Assembly (NCBI GenBank): GCA_029855935.1
Contig: JAGSHN010000023.1
Coordinates: forward strand, 32,001-96,000
Source of the DNA: Candidatus Thorarchaeota archaeon
GTDB lineage: Archaea > Asgardarchaeota > Thorarchaeia > Thorarchaeales > Thorarchaeaceae
Length of the DNA: 64,000 nucleotides
Reading direction: 5' to 3'
A program made the position numbers and the translations under genes. The notes under the pieces were generated by a model. The model was given only the letters and a program-made list of their open reading frames with translations. It ran no database searches and was not told the origin of the DNA. Positions 5,818 through 38,056 of the stretch are shown here, one piece after another (position 1 is the first letter of the stretch; each line of letters opens with the position of its first letter).

Positions 5818-6342
5818 CTAGGAGTTGCGGGAAGATCTCAACAGACTCACTGACTCAAGCACCTTTCTAATCCATTGCTTCGAGTACTTTTGTTTGAGTG
5901 CTGCTACTATGTCAACAATCGTGTCAAAGTCGCGTTCGTTGAACACTCTCTTCACAAACAGCGCTGTGGCAATCACTGACAGCTGTGTTGCGGTATATGA
6001 TCCAAACTCCTCGACTAGCGTATCAATCACCTTCATTTCATTTTCGGCTAGGAAACTAGCGAGCTCGGCTTCTCTCTTAGGAGAAATGAAATACCCCTTG
6101 TCAGAGTCCCACAAGATCCTAAGCCATCCCATTGCCTGAGCCAAGTTGGTAAAACTTGTCACCTTCGGAGAGTATGGTCCGTAGTGATACAGCGAATACC
6201 CAAGGTCCGTGCCGCCCTTCGCATCAAACAAGTACATTAGTTTCTGGATTTTTGTTCTCCCTATTTGCTTGTCAGGATGTCTTGCATATAATTTCCTTAC
6301 GAGATAGTAGACCAGAGCAGGACCCTTTAGCAGACTCTTCAT
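5818..6342 (-). CDS. YwgA-like / Panacea(SocA)-like winged-helix protein
   Basis: GRTKIQKLMYL and YSLYHYGPYS motifs. ATG at 6342 lies 4 nt after the HD gene stop. Confidence 0.75.
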   Translation of the reverse strand: MKSLLKGPALVYYLVRKLYARHPDKQIGRTKIQKLMYLFDAKGGTDLGYSLYHYGPYSPKVTSFTNLAQAMGWLRILWDSDKGYFISPKREAELASFLAENEMKVIDTLVEEFGSYTATQLSVIATALFVKRVFNERDFDTIVDIVAALKQKYSKQWIRKVLESVSLLRSSRNS

Positions 6343-6346
6343 CTCT

Positions 6347-7603
6347 TCACAGACCTCCAGTATCCCTTGCTCGTTCCAGATCAGACGCATTGACATAGAT
6401 TCTCGTCTTTGCATATTTGCCTTGTAGTGCTTCCACTATGGGGGAATACGTTGAGAGAGGATAAATACGCCCCTCTTCTTTCTGAATGACCTGAATCTCT
6501 TCATTCTCAAGCCCATACCAAGTATTCATCTCTCTAAGACTATCCTCCCAGTACCATATTCCGTTTGCGGAGAGCTTTGACTTCAGCCTGCTCAGCCTAT
6601 CCTGTTCTTCTGATTGTATGCAAAGACCCCTTGTTTCATATAGAACTCGGGGGTGGTCTCTATTAATGATTCTTGTTAGTTCATCTTGCGCCTCTTGTCT
6701 CATGAGCTCCCACGCTGAGTAGTCATCAATCATCAGGAAGTCTTGGATGTCCTTTGGCGATGGAAGTTGGACTATTGCTTGTTTCAGTGCCTGTTGAAGA
6801 AGGTAGTCATATGCTCGTCGAGTTTTGTGACAATACACTTGGGTGAACATATGGTACCTAGAAATAAGCAATGACTCCGCAATGTGCCATCCACCCTTCC
6901 TTACGCCAAGAACAACATCGCCGGTCTCAGGATCGACACCAAGTCCAAGAGTAACAACTAGTCGCTCCAAGTCATAGATGCCATACTTGACTCCTGCGTG
7001 CAGAGAGTCTCTCAGGAGGTAGTCACATCGGTCGGCATCAAGCTGACTTGATATCAGAACCTTCCAAAATAGTCTTCCCTTGAGCCTCTTGGGGTTCCCG
7101 ATTATCAAGTCTGCTATTTCTTCAGATTGGATTCCGTAGTTCTGGTTCAAGGGATGGTCTTCGATGACTTGCTTCAGTGGTCCATTGATGATTGAGACAG
7201 TATAGTCTTCGTGCTTATACTGCCTTCCAGTGGTCGGATTCGTTTGCATCAGTTCCTCGGACGCGTGAGAGAATGGCGGATGCCCCAGATCGTGAAGAAG
7301 CCCAGCAAGACGAACAATCTGGCGGTCCCTCTTGAAGCCAGCCTCCTCGTAGTCTAGATTGTCCCGAAGTATTCTCCTATTTTCTTCGTTTCCTATAATC
7401 GAGTCATACATTCGCGTTATCAGACGCATGACCCCGAGTGAATGTTCAAACCTAGTATGAGTTGCACCAGGATACACCATGTCCGTCAGACCAAGCTGGC
7501 GTATTCTCCTAAGTCGCTGAATAGATGGGTGTGCTATGATCTCCTTTTCCCACTCATTGAACTTCACGAAGCCGTATACTGGGTCTCGAACCTCGAACTT
7601 CAT
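6347..7603 (-). CDS. HD-domain phosphohydrolase, SAMHD1/YwfO-like dNTP triphosphohydrolase family
   Basis: RDPVYG, QRLRRIRQLG, VYPGATHTRFEHSLG, LLHDLGHPPFSH, LDADRCDYLLRD, VYCHK. Start placed at MKFEVRDP. Confidence 0.92.
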   Translation of the reverse strand: MKFEVRDPVYGFVKFNEWEKEIIAHPSIQRLRRIRQLGLTDMVYPGATHTRFEHSLGVMRLITRMYDSIIGNEENRRILRDNLDYEEAGFKRDRQIVRLAGLLHDLGHPPFSHASEELMQTNPTTGRQYKHEDYTVSIINGPLKQVIEDHPLNQNYGIQSEEIADLIIGNPKRLKGRLFWKVLISSQLDADRCDYLLRDSLHAGVKYGIYDLERLVVTLGLGVDPETGDVVLGVRKGGWHIAESLLISRYHMFTQVYCHKTRRAYDYLLQQALKQAIVQLPSPKDIQDFLMIDDYSAWELMRQEAQDELTRIINRDHPRVLYETRGLCIQSEEQDRLSRLKSKLSANGIWYWEDSLREMNTWYGLENEEIQVIQKEEGRIYPLSTYSPIVEALQGKYAKTRIYVNASDLERARDTGGL

Positions 7604-8825
7604 CACGATATCCACACCCCAGCGCCACACTTCTTCACGTTGCGATATGTGCCCCGATTGCAATACGGAATAAATGAGGATGAAATTCCAGACAAACAGA
7701 GAACAAGATCAGAATCACTTCTTGAGCCCTGACGTTCGCAAGATGGTCGTATTCCAATCCAATTCCAAAACGTGAAACTCACAGGTGATGTATGGCCCTC
7801 TCTTTTGGCAGCCCGTTCGGCTACGCCAGTTCGTACGAGCACCGTATTCTTCGTGATTGACGTCATGGTCACTGTTCGCATACTCCCCAAGATTCGTTGT
7901 CAGCCCACTTTCCCGCTCGAATGAGCAGAATACAGGGTACGAACACCATATGAATACTTGTGCGATCCTGGCAGCCAGTTGAGGGAATCCGCAACTCTTC
8001 TATTTCAATCCACTGTCAAGAAAACGGCTGGGGCTACAATGACACGGTCCCGACCACGAACCGCAGTCAAGCCCTCCATTGCCTGAGGGCCTAATAGTGA
8101 CTCCGAAATTGATGCTGCGCACAACAAGATGACTGACCAAACAATCTCCCAGAGGGGGTATCGTTGCCTGTGGTCCGAGGAGCAAAGTTGCTATCACAAC
8201 GAAAGCTCAGTGTGGCTGTAGCTGAGCTACTCAACCCGATCTACCTTACGAATCGTATGCACACGGGCATTGCCATATCCTTCCTAGACCGAGCGTTCCG
8301 CCTAGCAGATTTCGGTAGCGGGTCGAAGTACCTCTCGGCTACTCCAAGCGTATCGGGGAGCAAACGTGCATAACCACCGGACTTCGTTCATTCCTGTTCA
8401 AGCGCAGCAATGGTGTCATCGTCAAACTCTTTGACATCATCGGAGAACCCAAGAAGGCTGCAAGCCTAGCGCTCCCAGCTTCCACAACGTGTTTCTTCCT
8501 GCTTGAGCCAACCGTTCACGTAGGCAGTTCAATTATTGACGAGAGTAAGCAACAGCACCGCCTGCCCACAGGTCAACAGAGTTGAAAAGTAGCTGGATAG
8601 CAAAGACATCCGAGCGCTTTGATAGGCTCAGCCCACATAGGGGCTTGAGAAGAATGCCCGTATTGCCAGAAATCACCAAGCCCCTGGGAATTGGATAGAC
8701 ACAGACGCTCGACTGCTAGCCAAGTCACATCAACTGCAAGACAGCCAAGGAATGGGTGAAGGCGCAGGTAGAACTATGGGAGTTTTGTCACCATAGGCGA
8801 GACATCAGAAACAAACGTTGATTGT

Positions 8826-9305
8826 CTAGCCAATCAACGTGAATCCGTCAAAGATACTGCAGCCGCAAGGTACTATCCGCAAAGGGAAACTAGGCGTTCC
8901 CAGAATCCTCTTTACCAGAGACAAGTTATTCGCAACAAAATCGCATATGTTCTGTGGGAGAACCAATATGTGACGGTAGTTGGGATTTCTCACGCCCATG
9001 CAGTCCAGCAACCCACCAAGAAATCCTTCAGTTTCCTTGAACTTGCTATCAAGACTGCGGATGGCTTCAGAAAAGGTTGATTCCTCAGCAATGTTCTTGA
9101 GTTCCACCAGGAATGCGGTGCATTTGTCATCCTCGAACATAACGTAGACTACATCGCAATGGGCCAAGTGCATTCTCCCAAGTTCCGCGTACTTCTCGAA
9201 GTTGAGAACCAGAAAGGGCAGACCGCCCTTGAGGATGATTTTGCAGTCATTCTCTTCATACTCGGCTTCCATTCTCGGCCCATTCGTCGTCCCCGGCACG
9301 TTCAT
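8826..9305 (-). CDS. Putative PD-(D/E)xK-fold nuclease, partner of the upstream ATPase
   Basis: HCDVVYV...FLVELK resembles the (P)D...ExK motif. Overlaps the ATPase 3' end; AGGAGA precedes the ATG; alternative start at 9272. Confidence 0.6.
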   Translation of the reverse strand: MNVPGTTNGPRMEAEYEENDCKIILKGGLPFLVLNFEKYAELGRMHLAHCDVVYVMFEDDKCTAFLVELKNIAEESTFSEAIRSLDSKFKETEGFLGGLLDCMGVRNPNYRHILVLPQNICDFVANNLSLVKRILGTPSFPLRIVPCGCSIFDGFTLIG

Positions 9306-10989
9306 CGTCTCCTAAGCCTAGCGCCCACTCCAGCAGAATATCTATGACATCCGTCAGACTGGGAATGTGCTTTGTTAGCTCATCTGCGGGAACTTCTGAT
9401 ACTTCAACTCCTTCCTTCTCAGGCTTGTAGTAGTAGAACCGGATGTCAAGATCCCCTGCTCGCGCAGCGTATTCTGACAGAAGCTCAAGAGGACCGCCCT
9501 CAACAGGCACCCTCTGCATCTCCAGGAGCCTCTCTATCAGCTCACGGATCTTCTCGCTGCTGGGTCGGTGTATCTTTATGTATGCTAGGATAAGAACGAT
9601 GAGGTCACTGTGGGTACTGAAAACCACTTGGTGCTCGTACTTGCTTGCAAGCGCCGCCAGAGTCAACCCCATCAGCAATTGAGCGGCATAGTGTAGTTGA
9701 GCCTCGGGCTCCTCTATGATGATCCTTGATCTTGGACGCGTCGAGAGAACTGGCAACAGAATTCCCGCAACTTCTCCGGCCAGGGCCGAGGCCGAGTTCA
9801 TTGGCACGGCGCACGCACCCGTGGAATAGAATAGACCCTTCGCCCTTTCGTAGGTAAGTCTGCCTTGAAGAACCGGAAGAAATAGCTCAATTGCTTCCTT
9901 GTCGTAGGAACCGTCGGCAATCTTGGATCTGCCCAGGCTCAGCCACGATATGTAGGAATGCAGAACGACATCTGACTCATACAGTGTGCTGTAGCCACGT
10001 CTGTCTCTTCGAATCGGTTCTTGCGAGAGGAGTTCTAGCTGGTTGATGACGAGGCTTCGTCCGAATGGAATGAAACGTACTTCCTCTAGACCGTATGACT
10101 CAGCATACGCAGCCCTGAGCGGTTGACATATTGACTCGTCTACGAATTCCAGAAGCACGTCATCCAGCCACAATTGGATACGGTGGGGAAGGAAGGAACC
10201 TAGGACATAGCCAGGCCTGCTGGCCCTCTGGAGAATCTGACTGACTGTGGCCTCCGGACTCTTTGCCGACGAAGCAATCTTCTTCAGTTCGTCCAGCACG
10301 TTCTTCGAGAAGACCCTCTCAACCGCCCTACTGCTGGCCCTCATCGAGAATCTGAGCTCCAAAGCAATTGCAACTACTCCTTCGGGTTTCAGGTCAAATG
10401 AAACGTTCGCTTGACAGATCGTATTCCTCCTCAGGTCACCAAATTTCTCAGCATAACTACGTGGCTCCGTAGAACTCTCAGCAATCAAGTCAAGGAACTC
10501 CGGCATTGATACCGAACTATCCAGTTTCGAGTCATCTCTCACCAAGACGATATCCCGATAGAAGTCTAGATTGGGCCGCAGCAAACTATCGACAGGAATG
10601 ACGCCAGAGGCCTCTATGGTAAAGTTGAGAGTGCCATCTTCGGAGCGCCAGCGAACGTTTTCCGCACCAGTCTGTTCTCTGAAAACCTCAGCGAGATTCG
10701 GTACTTGACTCTCTAAGCCTTCAAGGCCCAACGCGTACAACGCTACCAGCGCGTACAAAGCCCTCAGCGAGTTTCGCAGATTCAGAGGCGGATAGTCCAC
10801 ATCATACGTACTTAGTAGGTTACGGAACTCAAACTCGCGTGCGTGCTCATCGAGCATTAGAGTCGAAGCATACAAGGCTCTGAGGGTATACGACTTCCCC
10901 GTATTAGGCGGCCCGAACACGACAGTTATGTCGCCAATCTCTATATCCGCCGATCGTATCGGGCCCAAGTTCTCTATGTGGAATCCCAC
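9256..10989 (-). CDS. ABC-type ATPase (AAA_15/AAA_21 family)
   Basis: IENLGPI, Walker A GPPNTGKS, Walker B/D-loop IIEEPEAQLH, H-loop STHS. Confidence 0.88.
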   Translation of the reverse strand: MGFHIENLGPIRSADIEIGDITVVFGPPNTGKSYTLRALYASTLMLDEHAREFEFRNLLSTYDVDYPPLNLRNSLRALYALVALYALGLEGLESQVPNLAEVFREQTGAENVRWRSEDGTLNFTIEASGVIPVDSLLRPNLDFYRDIVLVRDDSKLDSSVSMPEFLDLIAESSTEPRSYAEKFGDLRRNTICQANVSFDLKPEGVVAIALELRFSMRASSRAVERVFSKNVLDELKKIASSAKSPEATVSQILQRASRPGYVLGSFLPHRIQLWLDDVLLEFVDESICQPLRAAYAESYGLEEVRFIPFGRSLVINQLELLSQEPIRRDRRGYSTLYESDVVLHSYISWLSLGRSKIADGSYDKEAIELFLPVLQGRLTYERAKGLFYSTGACAVPMNSASALAGEVAGILLPVLSTRPRSRIIIEEPEAQLHYAAQLLMGLTLAALASKYEHQVVFSTHSDLIVLILAYIKIHRPSSEKIRELIERLLEMQRVPVEGGPLELLSEYAARAGDLDIRFYYYKPEKEGVEVSEVPADELTKHIPSLTDVIDILLEWALGLGDDERAGDDEWAENGSRV

Positions 10990-11802
10990 GGGGAGCTCCC
11001 TCGGTGGGGACGTGCTCGTTCTCCGAACAATAAGGCTTTCGATAGAGGGCTGCAGGAGACTATGTCACGAGCGGACTGGGCGGCACGTAAGAAACCGGTT
11101 TTCTCATTAGAACGGCATTCCCGAAGACCAAGGCATCGCACGCCCCTGAGCCGCCCCTTTGCTTAGCTACATTGTCACGAAAATGCAAACTCTGTGCACA
11201 GATGTGCAACGAGAGAGCAAGCGTCGACACATCAGGTACAGCAGTATGAGGGCCAGACAGTTGACCAACGCCAGTGCGGGCCACGTCCTCAAGAGAAAAG
11301 ATACTCAAACTCATTGAACGGACACACTTGACGGTCTACATCTAGAACGTGAAAGTGCCCGCGGCTGCCACCGGGTACACGCGGTAGAAGTGGAAGAGTA
11401 GTCAAACTCCGGGACCAATTCCAAATGTGACAGTTCAACAGCAAGCGCGCCTGCAAACACAAGGTGAAAGACATAGTCATCGCTCGGAGAAGATCTCTCC
11501 CCGTACGATGTGCAGCTCCAGAATCTGCCCTATTCTACGACTCTTCAGGCATTCGTTCCGTCTTCTCGTGGCGGGGATAGACGCAGGACCTGATTGTACC
11601 AACAAGCACGGGCGGAGACCCCGACTCGACCCGGTCACGAGTACAGCGTTAGAAACAGCCTTGGTCGAAGAATCGACTATGGCATTGGAACTCCATCATC
11701 AAATCAGCCCGCTAAATTCAGGTTTCCGCTGTCCCTGGAGTGCTCTTCTCCAAAGAAACGACTCGCTGTTGGCCAGCCATCGGGTTTCGCAGACGCCTGT
11801 CA

Positions 11803-12468
11803 CTAACCCAGAGATCTCCGAAGAAGGACCCTATTCAGACCTCTTTTTCCTCTCTTTTTCCTGATTGAGGAGCGCTTGACTACCTTCCACTTGCCTAGGT
11901 CGAAAAACAACACGTCTATCCGGTGTCCATCCTTTTGTCGGTCGTCTAGTTGTTGCACGTCATCTATCGCTTTCTCCAAGGGATTCTGATCTCGTCCCCC
12001 TCTAGAAGTTGGGACCAAAAGAATGACCTCTATCAGGTGACGGTAGCTCAACTTGTTCTTGAATTCCACCAGCTTCTCAAAGTCCTCTCCATAGCCTCTC
12101 GGGTTTGTTGTTAACTTGAACTCCACCACTGCAAGATTCAGTTGATCTTTTCCCTTGACGTGGATGATGAAGTCCGGTATTCGTCCAGTATCGAAAATGT
12201 GTTGGTAACCTTTGTTCACTTCTCCCTGCACAATAGCACCGCCAAAATCCACAACTCGCTGTTCAATCAGACACCGGAGCTGATGGTAGAACTCGTATGC
12301 GATAGGGCGTTCAAGGAATTTCAACTCTGCAGCACTATTCTGCCCTTTAGTAGACGATATCTGCTGATAGTCATAGTGAGATAGTTGACAATACTCTTGG
12401 TCCATTCTTTCAAGCGCACAGCAAACAGCATCAAGAACACCCGAACACTTGGCTTCAACTTTGTCCAT
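11803..12468 (-). CDS. Putative PD-(D/E)xK restriction-like nuclease
   Basis: ERPIAYEFYHQL helix, IPDFIIH...VVEFK catalytic-type motif, GGTGG RBS-like element upstream. Confidence 0.65.
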   Translation of the reverse strand: MDKVEAKCSGVLDAVCCALERMDQEYCQLSHYDYQQISSTKGQNSAAELKFLERPIAYEFYHQLRCLIEQRVVDFGGAIVQGEVNKGYQHIFDTGRIPDFIIHVKGKDQLNLAVVEFKLTTNPRGYGEDFEKLVEFKNKLSYRHLIEVILLVPTSRGGRDQNPLEKAIDDVQQLDDRQKDGHRIDVLFFDLGKWKVVKRSSIRKKRGKRGLNRVLLRRSLG

Positions 12469-12501
12469 TCATGTCCACCTACCTGTCCCGTTTCAAACCC
12501 G

Positions 12502-12518
12502 TAGCAATCAGATTGCTA
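12502..12518. promoter_or_regulatory. Perfect inverted repeat, candidate operator
   Basis: TAGCAATC-A-GATTGCTA lies between an AT-rich box (about 12539-12548) and the start of the 12468 gene. Confidence 0.4.
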
Positions 12519-13014
12519 ATTGCGGGGTTTGCTCGCTCAAATATGAAACCTAGCTAGTCTGATATTATGACCAGAAAGACGGCCGCCGCCCGTATTTCAA
12601 TCTGTCGGCTACACAGCAGTTGCCGAGGTGGTTCTCAGGGGAACATCGTGCAAGTTCAAACAAGCTCGCAGAATGCTTCCCAAGATGCGGTTTCAGAAAG
12701 AGCATCACAAGACGGACGGACGACAAGATACCAGCTGAAACATTGTGTCATTTCGGACTTGCTGGCCAACCGACATAGGCCGAAGCAAAAGGGGCCCGAA
12801 AGAACGACTCATCGTTCCGATGGAAGGCGACGAAGTGAATTCGGAGCAACCGTTGGGAAACTATGTTCAATGCGCGACAAGCTGTGCCCCTTGAAGCAGT
12901 TTGAAACCTATTGACCGCCTACAGGCACCACTCCGGAAGAGCCTACCATCGAAGGACAAATAATATCAGGCAGAGCAACGTCACAATGCTTGCTCAGTAG
13001 GAGGGCTGCATGCA

Positions 13015-14934: not shown

Positions 14935-15132
14935 GTTCGTCTAGTCACGCCAAGATGCGAAGTCCTTTCGACTACGACTCTCAGAAACCTCAGAGTATGT
15001 CCGGATAGACAGTACCTCTCTCGTATGCCGAGAGGTTCCCAGCGGTGACAATCCGCCGACGATGGACGCGACACGGGCAATAGCCCCGAGATTCCCATAG
15101 ACGTAGGACAGGCTATGTGCCAAAACCTCTAA

Positions 15133-16221
15133 ATGCCCCTTGGGCACACAATCGTTGAGGGGTCATCTCTGAGGGTACTCCACACGTCGGATCTCCATCT
15201 CAGTGCGGGCAACCCGCGCACACTCGAAGCCCTCGAACACATTCTAGATGTGGCAAGGCAAGAGAACGCAGATATCGTCACCATTGCTGGTGATATGTTT
15301 GACTCTGCCAGAGATGCAAACGAACTGCGGCCACAGCTAAGAGATCTGCTATCCGAAAACGGCTTTGAGATCCTTGTCCTCCCCGGGAACCACGACGCCA
15401 CGGCCTTTACCCAGAATACATTCTACGGCAATGATGTGTTCCCGCTGATCGATAAGCCTGTTACTGTCAGAGAATATGAAGACCTCCTCATCGCGGGCGT
15501 GCCATTCCGCGAGAGGCTGGACGATGATGTAGCACTCCGAATTCGAGAAGTTTCGGACTTCACAGGCACGAAGATCCTCTTGCTGCACTGCACCCTCGAT
15601 ATCGGCCTCGGGAGCGGTGGCTTCGGCGAAGAAGAGGCGATTCGCTACATGCCTGTGTCTTCAGCCAAGCTGGCCGGGCTCGGTTTCGACTACATCCTGG
15701 CTGGCCATTTTCACTCTTCGCTGCACGAACAGAAGCTTGCAAGCGGAGGACTGTTCGTCTACCCGGGGTCACCAGTCTCTCTGACAAGGAAGGAGCGAGG
15801 GCGGCGATCCGCCTATCTCATTGACACTGAGAGCAAGAAGACGCAGGCCATAGAGCTCTCTACGTTCTACTGTGATGAGCTCGAGGTCACAATCTCGCCG
15901 GGTACAGAGAAGGCGTGGGTCGAACAAATCGAACAATGGGCCAAGCATCACAAAGGAAAGAACTGTGACGTCAGGGTCATCGCGAAGGGGTTCACCGAGA
16001 TGCCAGAGGCTGAGCTGAAACAACAGATTGAGGCTGCAGCCGGGGGAATTCACGTTGACTTTCGCGTCCGTGGCATTGAGAACATCCTCCGATACCCCAT
16101 ATATCAGAGATTCAAGCAGCGACTTCTTAATGATGATGGGATCGACGACAAGGAGAGGGTAGATATGATGATGCTCACGGTCGTGTCTCGACTGGCGGAA
16201 GAGGGGGAGCTTGACCTATGA
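15133..16221 (+). CDS. Mre11/SbcD(YhaO)-like metallophosphoesterase DNA nuclease
   Basis: HTSDLH, AGDMFD, PGNHD, LHC, AGHFH, YPGSP. The true start may be about 12 codons downstream. Confidence 0.9.
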   Translation: MPLGHTIVEGSSLRVLHTSDLHLSAGNPRTLEALEHILDVARQENADIVTIAGDMFDSARDANELRPQLRDLLSENGFEILVLPGNHDATAFTQNTFYGNDVFPLIDKPVTVREYEDLLIAGVPFRERLDDDVALRIREVSDFTGTKILLLHCTLDIGLGSGGFGEEEAIRYMPVSSAKLAGLGFDYILAGHFHSSLHEQKLASGGLFVYPGSPVSLTRKERGRRSAYLIDTESKKTQAIELSTFYCDELEVTISPGTEKAWVEQIEQWAKHHKGKNCDVRVIAKGFTEMPEAELKQQIEAAAGGIHVDFRVRGIENILRYPIYQRFKQRLLNDDGIDDKERVDMMMLTVVSRLAEEGELDL

Positions 16222-18405: not shown

Positions 18406-19164
18406 CTACTCGTATATCTCCGAGATACTCGCAATCTCTCTCATCAGAAGCGTGATCTCGTCTAATAGCTCTTCACCCTCGTCGGGGTCCTGGGTCCGTA
18501 TGAGCTTGTCCTCATACATCCGGATAAGTCGCACCAGCTTCCTGTATCGCGGTAGAGGGAACTGTTCGGGGATCTCACCGAAGATGTAGCCCCGTTGTGG
18601 GGACAGATGTTCCTCGGCCGCTATATTTGCAATTTGAGTGATGGGAACCCAGATCTCCGCCAGAGTCCCGTCGTCATCTTCACTCGCCTTAAAGTAGGCC
18701 CCAATCTCGACGTCGTACTCGCCAAGGGTGCCTCGCAGTATGCTATCTGCGCGGACGTATCTCCATCCTCTTGCCCGTTTCTTCTTTCGGAGGGCAACAA
18801 CTATCTCAACCTCACCGTCCTCACGGTTTTCGCGAATGTACTCGCGGTCATCCTCACTGAGGCGGCAGGTCGGCGGTATTCCCCCAAAGTCGGTGTGAGA
18901 ATGAAACTCGCCGACTATGAAGTCCCAAGACAGAAACGCCAAGACCTCCTCAATACGGGCATATCTGCGGAAATTCGGCTCCACTGATGTGTATCGTCGC
19001 TCGGAGGACTGGAGAGCCACAACTGAGTTGACCACAACTTTGCCCGCCGAACCGAAGATGTCGCCCATCAATACACCTGTACATTCGCGCTTGTAGACCT
19101 CAATCGCATACCCGAGCATCTGTGCAAAGGCAGGTGCCCGGACGAAGACTGTTTCAATCTCCAA
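18406..19164 (-). CDS. JAMM/MPN+ (JAB) domain metallopeptidase with C-terminal helical extension
   Basis: RECTGVLMG (catalytic E), VGEFHSH, LSEDD (S..D). Confidence 0.8.
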   Translation of the reverse strand: MEIETVFVRAPAFAQMLGYAIEVYKRECTGVLMGDIFGSAGKVVVNSVVALQSSERRYTSVEPNFRRYARIEEVLAFLSWDFIVGEFHSHTDFGGIPPTCRLSEDDREYIRENREDGEVEIVVALRKKKRARGWRYVRADSILRGTLGEYDVEIGAYFKASEDDDGTLAEIWVPITQIANIAAEEHLSPQRGYIFGEIPEQFPLPRYRKLVRLIRMYEDKLIRTQDPDEGEELLDEITLLMREIASISEIYE

Positions 19165-19687: not shown

Positions 19688-20215
19688 TCACAAGAATTTT
19701 CTCACGAAGTACCTGAAAGATTCACTTCTACGTTGTGCAAGCGAGGGGTCGAATCTCTCGATGATTCTATTCATAAATACCGAACGCGGTATCGACTGCG
19801 GTATTATGATATTGAACCACTGTTTTGTGACACGTGGCGGAATCGCGAGCCTCCTGACACCAGCAATCTGCCGAAGAATTTCTCTCTCAATTCCCGCGAC
19901 ATACCACGCCTCTATCTCGGGTATGACAACTACTATGCGCTGCTCGTCCCCAATCCCATATCGTCCGGCTATTTGGTTTCTCAGTGCCGTCACACAGGGA
20001 TAGCGATCCAGATCCCGAACAAGGACATACTCAGTACTCTTCCGTTCCAAGGTATGAATGAATTTCCGAATTTTCCTTTTCTCCATCTGAGCGTACTTGA
20101 CGATTTGAACACGATCATAGTGTTTCTCAAGACGTGAACAAAGGATTCTCCTGAAGAAGCGTTCGTCGTCATCCCCTTCGACGAAGACATAGAAAGACGA
20201 CATTTCTTTCGACAC
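19688..20215 (-). CDS. Small TOPRIM-like protein (DUF4276/DUF4435/RloB-like)
   Basis: FVEGDDD, VRDLD, PEIEAW. Starts 2 nt after the ATPase stop. Confidence 0.75.
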   Translation of the reverse strand: MSKEMSSFYVFVEGDDDERFFRRILCSRLEKHYDRVQIVKYAQMEKRKIRKFIHTLERKSTEYVLVRDLDRYPCVTALRNQIAGRYGIGDEQRIVVVIPEIEAWYVAGIEREILRQIAGVRRLAIPPRVTKQWFNIIIPQSIPRSVFMNRIIERFDPSLAQRRSESFRYFVRKFL

Positions 20216-20217
20216 CG

Positions 20218-21498
20218 CTACTGCAGAATGCCCTGCACGAATAGGTCATCCACACCGAGATCGTTCTCCAGAAACGCCATTACCTCCTCGTCATTTCTTG
20301 GACGCGTGACCTGCGAATATCCATCCTCGTCCCGCGTAACAAGGAGAAGGTTATCAATACCAGCGTGCTTGACCACTTCGGGGTTGTGCGTTGTAATTAT
20401 CACCTGTTTGTTCATTCGGCTCGAGACCTCTTTCATCATATTCACAATCTTCGAGATGAGTAGAGGGTGAATGTTTCGCTCGGGCTCCTCTATGATAACG
20501 AGAGGGTTCTTTTCGAAATACAATGCGATTACCAACGTTGTGACATTCACCGTACCATCTGAGATCAGAAAGGCTGGCAGGAACCGTTTCTGTGAATAGA
20601 TCTCTCTGATGCTGGCGAGAAGCGATTTGTCCGGAAGTCTCTCTACCGTGAAGTCCTCTACGAGTGGCAGGACATCCTTCACTAATGACGAGATCAGGTC
20701 CCGGTCTCGCTTATTATCCAAGATGCGCTTCAGAATCAGGGGCAGATTGCTACCGTCTGGCTCAAGCTCGGTCTTGCCAGTGACGGGAGTTGCACGTTTC
20801 ATAAGTCGCGGATCAAAATCGTAGATAGAGATGTTACGCAGATAGTGTGCCAAGCTCGAATAGAACGGTGAAAGAAGGACTGGATCTTCAATGGAGAGTC
20901 TTCGTGGGCGCGGACGGGCAGCATATCTCATATCTCGCGCTAGAGACAGGTAGAAGAAGCGTTCTATGCGTGTGTCCGAGAGGGAATCAGACATTTCCAT
21001 CGTCACTCTGCGACCATCATTGATAGTAGTGATAGTGCCTTTGCGAACTTCTCCACGGAGCGCATCACCACCGTTCGGCCGGCGAGTCCCGTATTCACAC
21101 ACTGCCGTGAGTTTGTCCGACACTCCCGAGTAGTCCAGTTTGCGTTTGTAGAACCTGATTGAGAGTTCGTAATCGTACCGACTGACGGAGAGATAGGCAT
21201 CTCGAGATATCCGCAAGATGTCTCTTGCTTCGAGTGAGAGTTGGATGGACAGGTCACGCAAAGAACCTATGGCAAGATTGCGTAAGTAGGCCACTCCACC
21301 TTGCATCGAAATAGCGTTCTCCAACCCCATCGTGGTGATATCCTTGAGGAACCGGAACAGGGCGATAAGATTGGATTTTCCTGAGGCGTTCGGTCCGACT
21401 ATCACGTTGAAGTCGCCCAACTCAATCTCCGTTTCATTGAAGGTCCTGAAATTGCTCACCCTTATTCTTCGGATCCTCGTTGTGTCCTTCGGTCGCAT
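20218..21498 (-). CDS. AAA_21-type ABC ATPase (AriA/PtuA/RloA-like)
   Basis: NFRTF, GPNASGKSN, DGSNL, ISDGT signature, IEEPERNIHP, TTHNP. Confidence 0.9.
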   Translation of the reverse strand: MRPKDTTRIRRIRVSNFRTFNETEIELGDFNVIVGPNASGKSNLIALFRFLKDITTMGLENAISMQGGVAYLRNLAIGSLRDLSIQLSLEARDILRISRDAYLSVSRYDYELSIRFYKRKLDYSGVSDKLTAVCEYGTRRPNGGDALRGEVRKGTITTINDGRRVTMEMSDSLSDTRIERFFYLSLARDMRYAARPRPRRLSIEDPVLLSPFYSSLAHYLRNISIYDFDPRLMKRATPVTGKTELEPDGSNLPLILKRILDNKRDRDLISSLVKDVLPLVEDFTVERLPDKSLLASIREIYSQKRFLPAFLISDGTVNVTTLVIALYFEKNPLVIIEEPERNIHPLLISKIVNMMKEVSSRMNKQVIITTHNPEVVKHAGIDNLLLVTRDEDGYSQVTRPRNDEEVMAFLENDLGVDDLFVQGILQ

Positions 21499-21967
21499 AG
21501 GTTGGGAACCTCCCAACTTGTTTCGGAGAATTTGGCGCGTGTTGAGGTACTATCTCGGGAACGTATAAGGATTTGGAATGAACTGCTGGCTGAACTGCGG
21601 AGCTGGTTCGCCAGTCCTATGGATGCTTCGAACTGGCCTGTGCTTGCGCCAGCGAATCGGGGAAACGCCCTCCAAGACAACGCCCACCCTGTAGCGTGCT
21701 GTCGTTTCTCAGTTTCTGAGAGTTGGCTCCTTCGAATTCTTGTCCTCTACTACCTCCAGCAATGTGATGTGCTACTGTCTATGGTGTCGACTCCGCTGGC
21801 ATGCGCCAACACTCGCGGGAGAGGGCTTGTCCGGCGGAAACAGAGGATGCCCCAGGGGATTGTCCTGTTGGAACAGCAGCTGCGCTGGGCTCAGCTCTCA
21901 AATGATTCTAGAGTCGGCAGCCGATAGGCATATGCTGCCCGTTGGTGGAAGATAGCACTCGAGGAGC

Positions 21968-23014
21968 TTGAAGTATACAGCCGAAGACGAGGAGAGGAAT
22001 CGCACCTACTATGTCGCGTTGAACAAATCGCGCAATGATCTATTCCACCCGTACAACAACAAGGGCGGAGGCACACTGGAGTGGGACAACGATTTCAGGG
22101 ACAGGGTTCGCGAGGCCAAGGCCTTGCGGAGGACCAATGGATTGATTGAAGAGTTGGATTCGCCACCCAAGGCCCGGAAGTCGCTACCCACAAGGTCATT
22201 GAGGGTGATATACCGTCGGGACCCTGTCTTGGAGTCGATCGCGAGCAGATTCCTGCCCCGAGTCATCGATGCCACTCATATCTACGGTCTTCTGTTGTGT
22301 CCGCGCCGACACCAGTACGGTACACTGATGGGCGCAGCCGGGATGAAGTGCGACGAGGTTGAACGCAGCGAGTTCTCGCCGGCCTTCGGCTCTGTCCTAC
22401 ACAGTATGATCGCAGAGTTTGACTATGCCACGGGCTCCACTGAGAGCGCTCTCACCGTGCTCCATCAGGCTGAGTTCCTCACCGGCCCCGACAAGAAGAG
22501 GCTCCAGAATGCGATCACCTCGTACTCGGAGTTCACAGAAGAGATAGGTCTGAGGTCATCAGAGGGAGATCGAGTGTTGTCAGAGAGGGAGATCTACGGA
22601 ACCATAGATGTGGACGGGCAAGTCATCGAGCTCCGCGGGGTCATCGACATAGCAGTTGTCCGATCCGACGGTAAGATCGACGTCTACGACGTCAAGACCA
22701 ACTATCTGCCCCCTAGTGGCACTTCTGAAGAGAGGCTCAAGCGTGAGTTCCTGCGGAAACACCACGAACGTCAGCTCCTGACATACAAGTCAATGCTCGA
22801 ACAACAGGGACACACTGTTGAAGGTGTCTACGTTGTGGCTGTATCAAAGAAGAGTGCAACCCAAGTCAAGTGGAACCTAGTTCAAGTTGACGATGCAGAC
22901 TGGTCATTGCAAGAACTTTGTGAGATGCTGCCGATAACGGTCGAAGAAGAGGGACTCAGAAAGACTGAGAACAAGTACTGAAGGATCTGTGAGTTCAGAG
23001 GAATGTGCAACTAG
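21968..23014 (+). pseudogene. 5'-truncated UvrD-helicase/PD-(D/E)xK (AddA/B- or Cas4-like Fe-S) nuclease remnant with in-frame TGA
   Basis: Begins at a helicase motif VI-like EERNRTYYVAL, followed by CPRR, FGSVLH, GVIDI, DVKT and RQL..Y. TGA at 22979-22981 is followed in frame by RICEFRGMCN-TAG. Confidence 0.7.
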
Positions 23015-23474
23015 GCGGAACAACGTCACCAAGACTGACGCTCTCGCTGACTCTCTCGACGACCATAGTATCTGCAACATTTCGCCAGCCTGGCCTCTCT
23101 ACGAGCAGGCCGCCTTTCCCAGTGGGGTGCGGTTTTGAAGAGTCGAAACGGCGTGTTCCTCCCCAGAATAGGAGGAGGTTCCACGGAGAGACCAATGGGA
23201 CGCGCAGTAGATATGTGGCCATAGTCACGCGGCCTCGTTTGATGCTCCAACGGAGGCAGAAGGCTGCACAGCCCCCTCGCAGGCTTGCATCTGGCTGCAC
23301 CAGTATCGCGTTATGTCGACATCGGGTACAGATTGGCTTGCTATGCCACATCGCCCGGTAGAGTTACGGTAACGGTTCTCCCTGACAGCTAGCTCGAATC
23401 GGCCGAGCGAGGCCCTAAAATAGCATGATGTTTCAGTATCGTCATGTCGGCAAAGTACAGAGGGGTTTGAGATT

Positions 23475-23918
23475 ATGGAACACTACACGGTACTGTGGAG
23501 AGGGCCCTTCACGTATGATGAGGTCATTGAGGAGGAGGGCTACGACGACGATGAGGACCTCTATGCCATCGCACACATACCACCAAGACGTGGTCCAAGA
23601 ACGCTCTACGTGGGACATTCGTTCCGCCAGTATGTTGCGGACAGGTTGAAACAGCAGCCAGCGATCGATGCCATCTACGAGAAATATGGTGAGAGATCGG
23701 TTCGGTACTATCTTGGAAGAATCAAACTGAAACCTGGACAGCGCAGATCTGAGAAGCGTGTTGCAGATATCGAGGCTGCAATAATCTGCAACCACGGCGA
23801 CGAATTGGAGTTCAACTATGTGAATACTGTAACGTACTCGGGTCGGGACCTCTCAGTATCTCACAGGGGGTCGGTACCACCGCGCCTTAGGGACTTCAAG
23901 ACCAGCGACTGGGACTGA
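23475..23918 (+). CDS. GIY-YIG nuclease-like protein
   Basis: DLYAI...LYVGHS...DRLKQ...DIEAAII...FN pattern. Confidence 0.7.
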   Translation: MEHYTVLWRGPFTYDEVIEEEGYDDDEDLYAIAHIPPRRGPRTLYVGHSFRQYVADRLKQQPAIDAIYEKYGERSVRYYLGRIKLKPGQRRSEKRVADIEAAIICNHGDELEFNYVNTVTYSGRDLSVSHRGSVPPRLRDFKTSDWD

Positions 23919-23988
23919 GGTGTGCAGTGGTGGCAATGCCGACGCCATCTCCATCCACGCCAAGGCCAGAACAAGAGATTAATACGGA

Positions 23989-25389
23989 GTGAAAGAACCT
24001 GCGAAACGAATGAGATCTTCTATGCGCAGGGCTGCCTGTATCTCATTGGTCCTGGTTGTAGTCGTGGCATGGTACGGCGTCGTGATTCTTGGGGAGTACG
24101 ATTCCAACATCACAGAGACGACTTCTGACCTCAAGTTGCCCGCCCCAGTGATTACAATGTTCAAGAACGACAAGAGGTACGCACTGTTAGTGTCGTGGGA
24201 TGATGGTGTGAATGATATGGACTTCTCGTTCCTCGAAGACGAACTGGGCATCAAACACACCTCTTTCGTCGTGACTAGCAGAATAGCCGACAAGAAGTTC
24301 TGGGGCCTGGACATAATGTTCAGGGGCCACGATATCCAGTCTCACACAAGAGAGCACAAGGCAACCGGTCTCGCCAACCTCTCCTACTGTGAATATCTGA
24401 TCTCCCGGAGCATAGTCGACATCGAACGCACTTATGGATTCACGCCGATAGTCCTAGCATATCCGTACGGTTCAACAAATGCCATTACCAGTGAGATCGC
24501 ACTGAGATATGTCGACGTGGCGCGTGGTACGATACCGGAGGGGATTCTCAGACTGGGAACGTGGCCCATAAAGCACAGGGGCAACGCAAGACATTCCACC
24601 TTCGACCTCAACGGCCTCAGTTCGGAGAATATGGACAGACTAGCGGAGAGGTTCTACGAGATGACCAAGCTTGAGGGCAATCGCGCATTCAAGATCTACG
24701 GCCATACCGACCTAGCCACATTCAACCTGACCGAACGCGCTATGCTGTTTGATGAGCTGAAGAAGATCGCATTCCGAAACGACACGTGGTACGCCTCGTG
24801 GGGCGAGGCAATCGCATACGACATCCTGAGGACGAACACCACGATAGAGGATTTCTCATACGATGATAGCGAAGTGATGTTCAGAACGGTGACGAGCGCG
24901 AACGTCACCAGATACCCAGTTCAACTGACATACAGGGTGGAGATTCCAAAAGAGTGGGATTCGATAGTAGTCTACGATGACGGCAGAATCAGCAGCGACT
25001 TCACCCTGACCAATGGAACCCTGCTAATCAATTCAAAGCCAAGAAACCAGACAATAAGAATAGTGAGAACTCAAGACACTATGATTGACACCGAAGGGCC
25101 TGTGATAGGGGGAGTGACCATAGCAACGGGCACTGAGGGCCTGTTGATCACATTCGAGGTCACCGACGTCCTGGGCTTCGTCACCGACGTGAACATGACT
25201 GTCTCGGTTGGAAACAATACTTTCTTCTTCAATAGGATCGTGAACCCGATCTTCTGGGACAATAGCACGTACGGCCGGGCAATCTTCGCAGACGATATTC
25301 AGTCATCCGACGGGATTGACATAACGATCTGCGCCCAGGACAGCAGTGGAAATCTGTCTTCTCTCTCCTATCAATACCAAGGATGCTAA
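23989..25389 (+). CDS. Membrane-anchored/secreted polysaccharide deacetylase (NodB/CE4) family protein
   Basis: N-terminal TM; SWDDG, QSHTREH, AYPYG, YGH motifs; beta-rich C-terminal domains with many NxS/T sequons. Confidence 0.82.
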   Translation: MKEPAKRMRSSMRRAACISLVLVVVVAWYGVVILGEYDSNITETTSDLKLPAPVITMFKNDKRYALLVSWDDGVNDMDFSFLEDELGIKHTSFVVTSRIADKKFWGLDIMFRGHDIQSHTREHKATGLANLSYCEYLISRSIVDIERTYGFTPIVLAYPYGSTNAITSEIALRYVDVARGTIPEGILRLGTWPIKHRGNARHSTFDLNGLSSENMDRLAERFYEMTKLEGNRAFKIYGHTDLATFNLTERAMLFDELKKIAFRNDTWYASWGEAIAYDILRTNTTIEDFSYDDSEVMFRTVTSANVTRYPVQLTYRVEIPKEWDSIVVYDDGRISSDFTLTNGTLLINSKPRNQTIRIVRTQDTMIDTEGPVIGGVTIATGTEGLLITFEVTDVLGFVTDVNMTVSVGNNTFFFNRIVNPIFWDNSTYGRAIFADDIQSSDGIDITICAQDSSGNLSSLSYQYQGC

Positions 25390-26067
25390 TTGACCAAAGA
25401 AACCGCCTAAGAGGTCACGTCCGTCATCCCAGACGTAACGGACTCTCCACGACCATAATGGACAAACGTGACCTAGGTCACCGTGTGGATGTGACAGGAA
25501 GGCCGACGGGCTGCCGACAAGAAGCGCAACGCAGATACCGTGTTGGTTCTTTCTATAGACAGGCTGGCCTCAATGTGGAGTCATCCCTGGGAAAATCCAC
25601 TACTGTGAGCTATCGAAAGGATTCCGTCGGAGAAAGATCCCATTCTCACAATCAGTTTCTATGTCTCCCCTATGGCTTGAACACACCGCATAGATTTAGG
25701 GAACAGGCAAGACCAAAGTGGATCCCGCGTTTGACCTCAAAGGAAAACGTATCGTCCCAGGTTGAACTTCATCCCAATTCACCAGATTGCAGAGACCAAG
25801 AGTTCTCTCTGATCGCACGTCGTTCTTCCCAGTTTTCCTGGCTCGACCACCTGCCCACGTCAGATCCTCACAACCCACCTTCAGGAGCAGCCCTATTTCT
25901 GTTCCAATTGGACAGGCTACGTTGACGTTGCGGGGTACCCGAGCATATTTCACCATTCCACCGAGGTTTATTTTTATGCACGAGTCAACGTGTTGCAGGC
26001 GGGAATCGGCTAGTCTGCTTGGTCTGTAGCAATCCCAAAGAACAACTCGCGTATTGAGGCGATCACC

Positions 26068-27846
26068 ATGAGCGAGTCACTAAACTCACGTTTCCTGCGC
26101 ATCCAGCACATCCTAGAACGGGTTCACGAAGGCGACTACGTCCTTCCGGAGTTCCAGAGGAGCTTCGTATGGTCGAACTCCGACATCAAGGATCTTCTCG
26201 TTTCATGTCTGAACGGGTATTTCATTGGGACGTTCCTCCTTCTTAGGGGTGATGCGGCAAAGAGCTTTAAGACACGGTATTTCGAGGGAGTTCCCGAGGC
26301 CAATCCGCAAATCCCACGAGAGCCAGATGACAGGACTGTCGATCGAATTGTCTTGGACGGGCAACAAAGGATAACTGCGGCATACTATGCCCTCTATGCG
26401 CCACCTGGTATCACACCCAAAGGGGCGTCATATCCCAGACGCTATCTCCTGAGGATTGAGAACTGTCACGTCGGCGACATCGACTGGGAGGATCTCATAG
26501 AAGACTGGTCCGAGAACGAGAGCAGTCGAAAAGTCCCTCACTCGTCAGGTGCAGCTAGACTTAGAGAACTCATTCAGAAACATGATTTTGTCAACCTTCT
26601 GAACGATTCAGAGTTCCGCAAATACCTCTTCGAGAATCATCTTCTGCCGTTCGCGGTTCTGAAATCAGACTCAGATTTCTCAAGGTGGTTGGACGATTAC
26701 GCGGACTACCTTGAGGAGAAGGGCATAGAAAAGGCTCAGGTGAGAGAACGGAAACAAGCCCTCCGAGAAAGACTGAAAAACGTGCTGAATTTCCAAGTTG
26801 CGGTTCTAGAGTTGGAGGAGAGGGACCTCGTCAAAGTCGTCGACCTCTTTGAGCGAATCAACCGAACAGGTGTTGCTCTCTCTGTGTTTGCACTAGCTAC
26901 CGCAGTCTACATGAAGGGAGGAGTAAACCTCCGCAGACTGTGGAGGGAGTTCTATGCAGCATCTCCTACAATTCAGCAGTTCTGTCAAGAGGATGATGAA
27001 ACATATCCCAAATACGTTCTCCAAGTGATGGCTCTTCTCCAAGGCAAGGAGGTCAAGAAGAAAGTCCTGATTGACTCCAGACAGTTGAGTGTTACATCTG
27101 ACCGATGGTCACAAGCCACGGAACTGCTCGAAAAGGCGCTCGACCGTGCAACAAGCACGAGAAACGGTTATGGAGCAATCAAGTCAAATCTCCTACCTTA
27201 TCGGTCGGCAATTGTCACTCTCGCTGCTCTTCTGGCCAAGTGCGGAACTGCTAGTGACTTTGACAAGCTGGACGCTTGGTACTGGAGTTCCGTCTTCACA
27301 GCAAGGTATGCTGGGGCCAGCGAAACAGCGATCAAGCAAGACTATGACCAAGTATGTCGATGGCTGAAGGATGGTACCCAAGAACCAAGTGTTGTCACTG
27401 AAGCGGCGAATCGTGTTTCGAGTCACAAGCTCGAGAACATCAGAACTGGCGGTACCTACAAAGCCATACTTTGCCTCATCTCATTGGCTGGTGCAAAGGA
27501 CTTCCTAACCGGACAGAGTCCCGAGCTAGGCTTGCTCAATGACCATCATATCTTTCCGAAATCATTGTATCGAGATAGACGCTCAGTTGATTCAATACTC
27601 AACCGGACACTCATTACCGACACGACAAATAGAGATATCTCGAATAAACGCCCGTCCGAGTATGTTCGGGAGATCATAAAGGCTCTTGGCGGGGAGGAGG
27701 ACGATGCGAGAGATATGCTGAAGAGTCATCTGATAGACGATGAATGTTTCGAGGCAATGAAACAAGATGACTATTCGCGCTTTATGGCCCGCCGGGCTGA
27801 GCTGATTCGTAGTGAGATGATTCGTCGAATCCGGTACGGGTCTTGA
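26068..27846 (+). CDS. GmrSD-type (DUF262 + HNH/DUF1524-like) modification-dependent restriction endonuclease
   Basis: LPEFQRSFVW, LDGQQR, FERINRTG, C-terminal DHHIFP..ILNR..N. Confidence 0.9.
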   Translation: MSESLNSRFLRIQHILERVHEGDYVLPEFQRSFVWSNSDIKDLLVSCLNGYFIGTFLLLRGDAAKSFKTRYFEGVPEANPQIPREPDDRTVDRIVLDGQQRITAAYYALYAPPGITPKGASYPRRYLLRIENCHVGDIDWEDLIEDWSENESSRKVPHSSGAARLRELIQKHDFVNLLNDSEFRKYLFENHLLPFAVLKSDSDFSRWLDDYADYLEEKGIEKAQVRERKQALRERLKNVLNFQVAVLELEERDLVKVVDLFERINRTGVALSVFALATAVYMKGGVNLRRLWREFYAASPTIQQFCQEDDETYPKYVLQVMALLQGKEVKKKVLIDSRQLSVTSDRWSQATELLEKALDRATSTRNGYGAIKSNLLPYRSAIVTLAALLAKCGTASDFDKLDAWYWSSVFTARYAGASETAIKQDYDQVCRWLKDGTQEPSVVTEAANRVSSHKLENIRTGGTYKAILCLISLAGAKDFLTGQSPELGLLNDHHIFPKSLYRDRRSVDSILNRTLITDTTNRDISNKRPSEYVREIIKALGGEEDDARDMLKSHLIDDECFEAMKQDDYSRFMARRAELIRSEMIRRIRYGS

Positions 27847-32595: not shown

Positions 32596-32658
32596 CGCGC
32601 AGTCAGCCGTGGGACAGACGCGTATGTGACTGTCGACTCCGAATCTGCCACGACAGTC

Positions 32659-38023: not shown

Positions 38024-38056
38024 AGAGATGCCAATCAGGCATATGTCTACATCACC

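Follow-up and report, generated by a model that had tools for sequence, protein, structure and literature searches.

A probable defence island of nuclease cassettes in a hydrothermal-vent Asgard archaeon

Genes at the locus

The window analysed here is a stretch of 64,000 nucleotides (nt) from the genome of a Candidatus Thorarchaeota archaeon (assembly GCA_029855935.1, contig JAGSHN010000023.1, positions 32,001 to 96,000; C29:32001-96000 of genome G000 in the numbering used below). Its part from 5.8 to 27.8 kb carries a series of ATPase and nuclease genes that an initial annotation, made from the letters of the DNA, had described as an archaeal defence island. The region is interpreted here as a probable defence island of a hydrothermal-vent Asgard archaeon, acquired by horizontal transfer and turning over fast, and assembled as a mosaic of independent one- and two-gene cassettes. 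Three of the cassettes are assigned by model scores to catalogued systems, namely a class-1 OLD nuclease, HEC-01 and GmrSD. Another three can be traced, as distant variants, to known nuclease defences: an archaea-only ATPase with a partner protein of 159 amino acids (aa), a protein like PD-Lambda-3_A and a GIY-YIG protein. Two more are conserved gene pairs, one consisting of an HD phosphohydrolase and a Panacea-like protein, the other of an SbcF-like nuclease and a membrane-anchored SbcE-like ATPase of the SMC (structural maintenance of chromosomes) type.

The assembly comprises 2.97 Mb in 32 contigs and is 97% complete. Its ribosomal RNA matches the archaeal small-subunit model of Rfam with 1167 bits, which bears out the archaeal origin proposed in the initial annotation. 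The nearest relative found, genome G034, shares genes at 75-84% nucleotide identity. The island DNA is present in one sequencing run only, a hydrothermal vent metagenome that is the probable source; no RNA run is listed.

Within positions 5818-27846, a listing of open reading frames (ORFs) and scans with Pfam, PADLOC and NCBIfam models yielded 15 credible genes (Table 1). All 15 are intact, and ten of them encode nuclease or nuclease-partner domains. In most cassettes a nucleoside triphosphatase, as sensor or motor, is paired with or fused to an effector that cuts DNA. The ABC ATPases would sense foreign DNA or phage proteins and license their nuclease partners. The gene classes named in the initial annotation were recovered by model scans and motifs where it had placed them. 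They include four ATP-binding cassette (ABC)-type ATPases, each with a different nuclease: a small PD-(D/E)xK protein, a fused TOPRIM domain, an Mre11/SbcD-like phosphoesterase and the TOPRIM-like HEC-01B. In the island genes the motifs are undamaged throughout: Walker, signature, TOPRIM, phosphoesterase, HD, JAMM and DGQQR.

Defence calls were based on PADLOC models scored singly, outside the system rules of the complete PADLOC/DefenseFinder pipeline. Scored in this way, only OLD, HEC-01 and GmrSD, all within 15 kb, are recognised as catalogued systems. The other modules, some of which had been expected to escape such models, stay uncalled as systems. The remaining ORFs in the gaps, 80-180 aa long, have no family match and low-complexity translations rich in Arg, Ser and Pro, and they were therefore treated as non-coding.

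Table 1. Features of the island, with their positions in the window, the basis of each assignment and their occurrence among Asgard phylum or family genomes (own genome counted)
Feature	Position	Strand	Basis	Occurrence
Panacea/DarG-C-terminal-like protein, 198 aa	5818-6414	-	Pfam SocA_Panacea 24.4 bits (cut-off 25.7); PADLOC DarG 1.2e-10	4/301 Asgard genomes
HD + HD_assoc_2 phosphohydrolase	6347-7663	-	Pfam HD 4e-11, HD_assoc_2 5e-14	
Relic, N-terminus of N4/N6 DNA methyltransferase	8669-8818	+	tblastn with G010 gene, 60% over 50 aa, E 1e-15	
159-aa PD-(D/E)xK-fold protein, ATPase partner	8826-9305	-	AF2 model, structural matches, family alignment	
577-aa ABC ATPase, AAA_15	9256-10989	-	Pfam AAA_15 2e-13	
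221-aa solo PD-(D/E)xK-motif protein (PD..EFK)	11803-12468	-	PD-Lambda-3_A-like by PADLOC	2/81 family genomes (1/80 others)
Class-1 OLD nuclease (predicted), 639 aa	13015-14934	+	AAA_15 2e-40; OLD-like_TOPRIM 1e-16; PADLOC Old 1.3e-54	8/81 family genomes (7/80 others, several pseudogenes)
SbcD/SbcF/Mre11-like phosphoesterase	15133-16221	+	Metallophos 4e-16; NCBIfam sbcd 1e-13	
SbcE/YhaN-like SMC ATPase, 667 aa, transmembrane hairpin ~17060-17210	16218-18221	+	AAA_27 9.6e-12	9/301 Asgard genomes
Stand-alone JAB/JAMM metalloprotease-like protein	18406-19164	-	Prok-JAB 1e-5; PADLOC JAB 1e-4	10/81 family genomes (9/80 others, some pseudogene copies)
HEC-01B, TOPRIM-like (DUF4276/OLD-TOPRIM-like)	19688-20215	-	PADLOC HEC-01B 3.2e-8; EGDDD motif	
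HEC-01A ABC ATPase	20218-21516	-	PADLOC HEC-01A 4.3e-50; Pfam AAA_21 5e-29	
337-aa ORFan, PDDEXK_1 (Cas4/RecB-like) domain	21968-22981	+	Pfam PDDEXK_1 7e-13	2/301 Asgard genomes (own + one marginal match, E 1e-3)
147-aa stand-alone GIY-YIG-fold protein (modelled)	23475-23918	+	AF2 model + structural matches	9/301 Asgard genomes
Secreted polysaccharide deacetylase	23989-25389	+	Polysacc_deac_1 3e-9; N-terminal membrane helix	
GmrSD-type (type IV restriction) enzyme (predicted)	26068-27846	+	GmrSD_N 8e-26; PADLOC PDC-M55C 1e-30, HEC-05 3e-29	

Sporadic distribution and turnover

The frequency of the modules was estimated by protein searches of 301 genomes of the Asgard phylum or 81 genomes of the family, many of which are incomplete metagenome-assembled genomes. 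For every module tested, 1-12% of the family or phylum genomes gave a match, and none occurs in the four genomes of the same genus, one of which is 98% complete in 10 contigs. With a DNA query of 20 kb, the island was likewise absent from all four. A flavin adenine dinucleotide (FAD) oxidase gene in the right flank (45.5-47.2 kb) served as a control; it was detected at 79% identity in the same comparison, so the distance is not too great for conserved genes to be recognised. Since gene order is scrambled in general between the own genome and G003, DNA synteny within the genus informs about presence or absence only. Several copies of the modules in other genomes are truncated or contain in-frame stops. 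The island has a GC content of 51.5% against 55.7% for the genome, and only 1.7% of 22-kb windows of the genome fall in this lowest range.

In the nearest relative, G034, these modules are found at other places, dispersed singly and in rearranged order. Its ATPase/nuclease pair lies beside Cmr6 and other genes of type III CRISPR (clustered regularly interspaced short palindromic repeats) systems and is convergent with its SbcEF-like pair. Of its OLD gene only separate N- and C-terminal fragments are left, and two ORFs, divided exactly at the membrane hairpin, stand in for the SMC-like gene. Next to its gene for the 147-aa protein, G034 has a homologue of a gene that lies 30 kb away in the window. 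The island is accessory and compositionally foreign, with module-by-module turnover between close Asgard relatives. Because the modules are sporadic and missing from the genus, they do not, in the genomes sampled, form a core set that is syntenic across the lineage, and their accessory status, assumed in the initial annotation, is upheld.

The modules had also been said to be separated by decayed spacers. This holds for one gap, where the first ~50 residues of a DNA methyltransferase, with two in-frame stops, are left over; the other gaps gave no relic, their matches, if any, being to sequence upstream of the same genes in G034. The relic stops right where the 159-aa gene has its 3' end, an indication that the remainder of a restriction-modification gene was displaced by the ATPase/nuclease cassette. 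This relic and the low GC content are the only signs of past turnover at the locus itself.

An archaeal ATPase and its small nuclease partner

The genes for the 577-aa ABC ATPase and the 159-aa protein overlap by 50 nt. The ATPase belongs to a small family, with 56 clusters among 5.8 billion proteins. In species-representative genomes, 41 of its 42 loci are archaeal, and the bacterial exception (L071) is a marginal match over 62 residues. The family is patchily distributed over six archaeal lineages (Asgard, Bathyarchaeota, Archaeoglobales, Thermococcus, Desulfurococcales/Thermoprotei and Thermoplasmata), and a scan of 2.9 million viral contigs found no relative. A partner ORF of 110-225 aa lies directly downstream of the ATPase gene in 29 of 31 loci. 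The other two loci end at a contig edge, so the arrangement holds in all 29 that are testable.

In the alignment of the partner proteins, D51 and E68 are invariant, C21, E37 and K88 are nearly invariant, and the lysine of the VELK motif (K70) is conserved beside E68. The family motif can be written as (H)CD...(V/I)ELK plus a C-terminal Cys, and two further Cys positions besides C21 are conserved. Structural comparisons relied on AlphaFold (AF2) models, which were compared with known structures by VIA Z-scores and with the PDB by Foldseek at E<=1e-3. The model of the 159-aa protein, with a pLDDT value (predicted local distance difference test) of 87.9 and a predicted template modelling (pTM) score of 0.84, resembles XisH, R.BspD6I, SdaI, Can2, Card1, LlaBIII, McrC, NucC, HamA and NucS with Z-scores of 5-7.9. 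These best matches are of middling strength, none reaching 8, and nearly all are PD-(D/E)xK nucleases, besides a few rows for the central domain of acetyl-CoA carboxylase. Foldseek gave no hit at its threshold, either for this model or for that of the 147-aa protein. No PADLOC or Pfam model matches the window's own 159-aa protein; single members of its family show faint matches to PDC-M47B, HEC-02B and PD-T4-4_B.

The ATPase, which carries an insert of ~350 aa, matches PD-T4-4_A (7.5e-16), PDC-M47A (1e-12) and HEC-02A (2e-9), as well as PDC-M56A and AriA. PD-T4-4_A, PDC-M56A, AriA and HEC-02A match about equally well, and they do so at residues ~1-50 and 410-465 only. PD-T4-4 (Vassallo et al. 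2022) combines an AAA_15 protein with a PD-(D/E)XK nuclease (PMC10952713), and HEC-02 combines an ABC ATPase with a NERD nuclease, both genes being required (10.1101/2024.01.29.577857). Like these two systems and the PADLOC candidate PDC-M47, the window pair consists of an AAA_15-type ATPase gene followed by a gene for a small PD-(D/E)xK nuclease. Unlike them, it is matched only at the Walker A and signature/Walker B ends of the ATPase, with the insert left unmatched; moreover, its nuclease escapes the PADLOC and Pfam models, its family is restricted to archaea, and its nuclease has conserved cysteines (C21 and two others). The pair is read as a strongly diverged archaeal branch of the PD-T4-4/HEC-02 architectural class, in which the ATPase would be the sensor and regulator and the small protein would cut DNA. 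An assignment to PARIS (AriA/AriB) was rejected, the fold of the partner being PD-(D/E)xK and not the DUF4435 TOPRIM of AriB.

Around 20 loci of the pair, 127 neighbouring ORFs were inspected. They include Cmr6 and other RAMPs, four HmaB/DUF1156 methylases, two viperins, PDC-S01, type IIG restriction-modification enzymes, PLD-type restriction nucleases, HepT/MNT, PIN proteins, other AAA_15/21 ATPases and three integrases, with housekeeping genes mixed among them. A location among known defence genes, which had been presumed for the uncalled modules in general, was found for this pair, but homologues of the SbcEF-like and HD + Panacea-like pairs lie mostly elsewhere.

In G034 (loci L031, on a contig of 21.5 kb, L032, L043, L094 and L123), the ATPase + nuclease pair is present in two or three paralogous copies, including the one next to the Cmr6/type III CRISPR genes.

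The OLD nuclease and the SbcEF-like pair

The OLD protein has an AAA_15 domain at residues 1-394 and an OLD-like_TOPRIM domain at residues 464-529, with the sequence EGETD at residue 473. It scores better with the PADLOC model for Old than with that for GajA (1e-29). Its gene has the one for the 221-aa nuclease-like protein on one side and the SbcF-like gene on the other, and a helicase partner of the UvrD/GajB type is missing. Because ATPase and TOPRIM are fused and no helicase accompanies them, the protein is placed in class 1. With other class-1 members, such as Old of phage P2 and the OLD proteins of Burkholderia and Thermus for which structures are available, it shares the N-terminal ABC ATPase and C-terminal TOPRIM domain on one polypeptide and the lack of a helicase. 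It differs from them in its archaeal host and in the position of its gene directly upstream of the SbcEF-like pair.

Loci L128 (G199:C98) and L129-L131 show OLD elsewhere in the family. In another genus, a C-terminal fragment of OLD and a JAB homologue (62% identity) occur 12 kb apart on one contig, and intact OLD homologues of that genus lie beside a gene pair for a ParB-like and a 239-aa protein. In G007, the genes after OLD encode a second ABC ATPase, a GIY-YIG protein and a DNA methylase.

The phosphoesterase gene downstream of OLD contains all four phosphoesterase motifs and overlaps the SMC-like gene by 4 nt. The same order, with the phosphoesterase directly upstream, is found in six of seven other Asgard loci, one of which is locus L031 of G034. 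The SMC-like protein has an AAA_27 (YhaN) head and no CxxC hook. In the middle of its coiled coil, at about residues 283-330, it contains a hydrophobic hairpin of two helices (FLSRTVLVF...PLALAGLVVFAVL) of ~45 residues with a proline, and this hairpin is also present in the strong SMC-like homologues that were read.

Bacillus subtilis SbcE (YhaN) has a unique hydrophobic, proline-containing and insoluble central domain without CxxC (PMC2811018). It acts with the SbcD-like partner SbcF (YhaO), is found at the pole of competent cells, and takes part in double-strand-break repair and transformation (PMC2811018); SbcE/SbcF is the only characterised relative of the archaeal pair. The archaeal pair resembles SbcE/SbcF in the SbcD-like phosphoesterase gene immediately upstream, the AAA_27 head, the absence of CxxC and the hydrophobic centre with its proline. 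It differs in the length of the SMC-like protein, which is shorter with its 667 aa, SbcE having about 960 aa. The archaeal protein also occurs sporadically, not universally, in its lineage (9/301), it is encoded in a defence island, and only the head domains show sequence similarity.

The own genome contains three pairs of the Mre11/Rad50 type, on contig C21 (144146-149364), on contig C10 (44285-46667) and in the island. The C21 pair, with a HerA-like gene upstream, is probably the housekeeping Mre11-Rad50; the C10 pair is short (357 + 433 aa). A NurA-HerA set is encoded separately (C17:29450-32132). The Rad50 model scores 25 bits with the island SMC-like protein, versus 74+57 bits with the C21 protein, whose gene adjoins an Mre11 gene. 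The island pair was rejected as the housekeeping archaeal Mre11-Rad50 in view of this low score, its lack of CxxC, the better pair on C21 and the NurA-HerA genes on C17. The idea that OLD and the SbcF- and SbcE-like proteins form one three-gene system was also discarded, since OLD is adjacent to the pair only here and, in decayed form, in G034; it was not upstream in five other SbcEF-like loci with upstream sequence.

With the hairpin in a membrane, both heads of the SMC-like protein would lie in the cytoplasm, from which one may guess at a membrane-tethered clamp-nuclease of the Rad50/Mre11 kind at the envelope. Such a complex might process linear DNA there. The pair possibly serves defence, DNA uptake or repair. 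Judged by eye, the wider neighbours of its homologues are mixed and include housekeeping genes, a setting that speaks no more for defence than for repair.

The HD and Panacea-like pair

The first two genes of the island had been taken for an HD pair. One of them is indeed an HD gene, but the other encodes a Panacea-like protein. The HD protein, probably starting at the codon at 7603 (MKFEV...), has intact H..HD..D motifs. In a sequence search of the PDB it matches 2hek (8e-48), EF1143 (2e-38) and SAMHD1 (1e-19), and by these matches it is assigned to the EF1143/SAMHD1 clade of deoxynucleoside triphosphate (dNTP) triphosphohydrolases. It was rejected as a Dgt-type anti-phage dGTPase, its score with the NCBIfam model antiphage_dGTPase being 24 bits versus a cut-off of 400. 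Four other HD paralogues are encoded in the own genome. The Panacea-like protein remains just under the Pfam cut-off; it matches the C-terminal part of DarG in PADLOC and also the DarG model of NCBIfam (1.4e-6).

The association of the two genes is conserved. In all five Asgard loci (window included) an HD gene is adjacent, and in four of them it is directly upstream on the same strand. The same holds for 52 of 55 testable loci in metagenomes (L132-L211, some of which are near-duplicates). These loci are bacterial and archaeal and come from sediment, marine, gut and fermentation samples, and the two genes usually overlap or nearly touch.

As in PanA/PanT (PMC8832971) and DarTG, the gene of a small Panacea/DarG-C-terminal-like protein and that of a potentially toxic enzyme form a tight bicistron, and as in DarT-DarG, the enzyme comes first. 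The differences are that the partner is an HD phosphohydrolase of the SAMHD1/EF1143 type, that the Panacea match is below threshold, and that the context is mostly not one of defence. Sugar-nucleotide and polysaccharide genes prevail around the homologous pairs, with a few methylases, AAA_21 ATPases and integrases and one GmrSD; this context does not speak for defence rather than nucleotide metabolism. The Panacea papers, PMC8832971 among them, name no HD or dNTPase partner in their main text. The best-supported reading would make the two a conserved enzyme-regulator or toxin-antitoxin-like pair. It may have a role in immunity by dNTP depletion, in which the Panacea-like protein would hold the dNTPase in check until infection.

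HEC-01, GmrSD and the stand-alone genes

The ATPase/TOPRIM module that had been called PARIS-like is better described as HEC-01: its ATPase fits HEC-01A far more closely than AriA (1e-28), and the match to AriB is 1.6e-3. The two genes are on the same strand, and the start of HEC-01B follows the stop of HEC-01A after 3 nt. A second, diverged copy of the pair (38-41% identity) is encoded at C15:9272-11046. The window pair has the ABC ATPase and adjacent TOPRIM-like protein of HEC-01 (Hma-embedded candidate 1) but is not embedded in an Hma system. HEC-01 is itself a candidate system, for which the defining preprint detected no protection in E. coli (10.1101/2024.01.29.577857). A role of the JAB protein as third component of HEC-01 was discarded, since the second HEC-01 copy lacks a JAB gene and JAB homologues have no HEC-01 nearby.

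The GmrSD protein has an N-terminal DUF262 domain with DGQQR at residue 97 and, in its C-terminal part, the His-Me (DHxxP) motif DHHIFP. Its match to PDC-M55C covers residues 189-582; the Pfam DUF1524 model itself gave no reported match. It shares these features and the single-gene organisation with GmrSD and BrxU, and HEC-05 is essentially BrxU. The relationship is remote (E around 1e-30 to the PADLOC models), and BREX or Hma genes are not adjacent. The enzyme would cut modified DNA.

The family of the 221-aa protein comprises 338 representative clusters, with E53, D99, E116 and K118 invariant. PADLOC PD-Lambda-3_A, the model of an E. coli defence nuclease, matches 20 of 30 members (best E 1.9e-9) and the window protein at 1.3e-4. 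A PD-Lambda-3_B partner was not detected: the adjacent ORFs 11427-11864 and 12567-12914 match no PADLOC or Pfam model and look non-coding. Sequence and profile searches of the PDB gave nothing for this family.

The best of five models of the 147-aa protein has a pLDDT of 85.5, the others going down to 43.7. Its top six VIA matches (Z 5.0-6.8) are known or likely GIY-YIG nucleases: T4 EndoII (Z 6.8), the N-terminal domain of a plant GRX (PDB 2lwf, Z 6.5), taken here for a GIY-YIG domain, UvrC-N, I-TevI, Eco29kI and the E. coli defence nuclease PD-T4-3 (9u75, Z 5.0). The next match has Z 3.5. The sequences YAI at residue 30 and YVG at residue 45 represent the two Tyr motifs. Sequence profiles and PDB searches gave no match, and the resemblance of this bare GIY-YIG domain to PD-T4-3 is one of fold only. 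The gene stands alone, and some genomes have truncated copies. The ~170 nt upstream of it (23301-23474) are ~80% identical to the corresponding DNA of G034, a conservation equal to that of the gene; they may be a promoter or leader or a small RNA, although Rfam gave no match.

The PDDEXK_1 ORFan had no relative among 5.8 billion proteins. The JAB protein has no conserved neighbour, and PDB searches gave marginal hits only. Both may have a role in defence. The deacetylase, with homologues of 42-48% identity in two genomes of the family, is regarded as cargo unrelated to defence.

Borders and alternative readings

No integrase, transposase, tRNA or flanking repeat was found in or around the island, and Rfam at gathering thresholds and a tRNA scan gave nothing in the window. 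The one perfect repeat, of 18 nt (9703-9720 and 20479-20496), is the coding sequence of the Walker B motif IIEEPE in two of the ABC ATPase genes. The right flank (27900-45500), with an M23 peptidase, secreted beta-propeller/TSP3 proteins, a subtilase, a solute-binding protein and a 1290-aa orphan, is likewise not conserved as DNA within the genus, so the variable region reaches beyond the defence genes.

A less likely alternative is a generic hypervariable region in which only OLD, HEC-01 and GmrSD serve defence, the SbcEF-like pair repair or DNA uptake, and the HD + Panacea-like pair the regulation of nucleotide pools, with the JAMM protein and the deacetylase as cargo. It is favoured by the function of SbcE/SbcF, the polysaccharide context of the HD + Panacea-like pair, the lack of a JAB partner, the deacetylase and the variable right flank. 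Against it stand the ten genes with nuclease or nuclease-partner domains, the separate housekeeping Mre11-Rad50, HerA-NurA and HD genes, which make the island copies extra, the sporadic occurrence of all modules, and the position of the ATPase and SbcEF-like pairs next to type III CRISPR genes in G034.

The remnant of an integrated provirus, plasmid or casposon-like element is an unlikely reading. The low GC content, the classical phage P2 origin of OLD and the three integrases among the 127 neighbouring ORFs of the ATPase pair speak for it. The missing mobile-element marks in and around the island, the absence of the ATPase family from the viral contigs, the lack of virion or replication genes and the dispersal of the modules in G034 speak against it. 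Core, vertically inherited genes are very unlikely given the distribution in the genomes sampled; only the deacetylase and the HD family have moderately frequent relatives.

The neighbours without a call had been proposed as undescribed antiviral systems. For most of them this is too strong, as they are remote variants of catalogued nuclease-based defences. At least one of the three uncalled pairs might still be a new antiviral mechanism, though this is less likely than not: the ATPase + nuclease pair as an autonomous immune system native to archaea, the SbcEF-like pair as an envelope-tethered machine destroying viral DNA on entry, or the HD + Panacea-like pair as a dNTP-depletion toxin-antitoxin switch of bacteria and archaea.

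Archaeal immunity other than CRISPR and restriction-modification is little charted; a 2025 preprint survey reports no other known system for nearly a third of archaeal genomes (10.1101/2025.04.20.649705). Surveys of defence in Asgard archaea have used bacterial models (PMC11291487, PMC13700489), which miss these three pairs. Should the pairs prove ordinary, the island would remain a clear case of defence genes exchanged one module at a time between close Asgard relatives.

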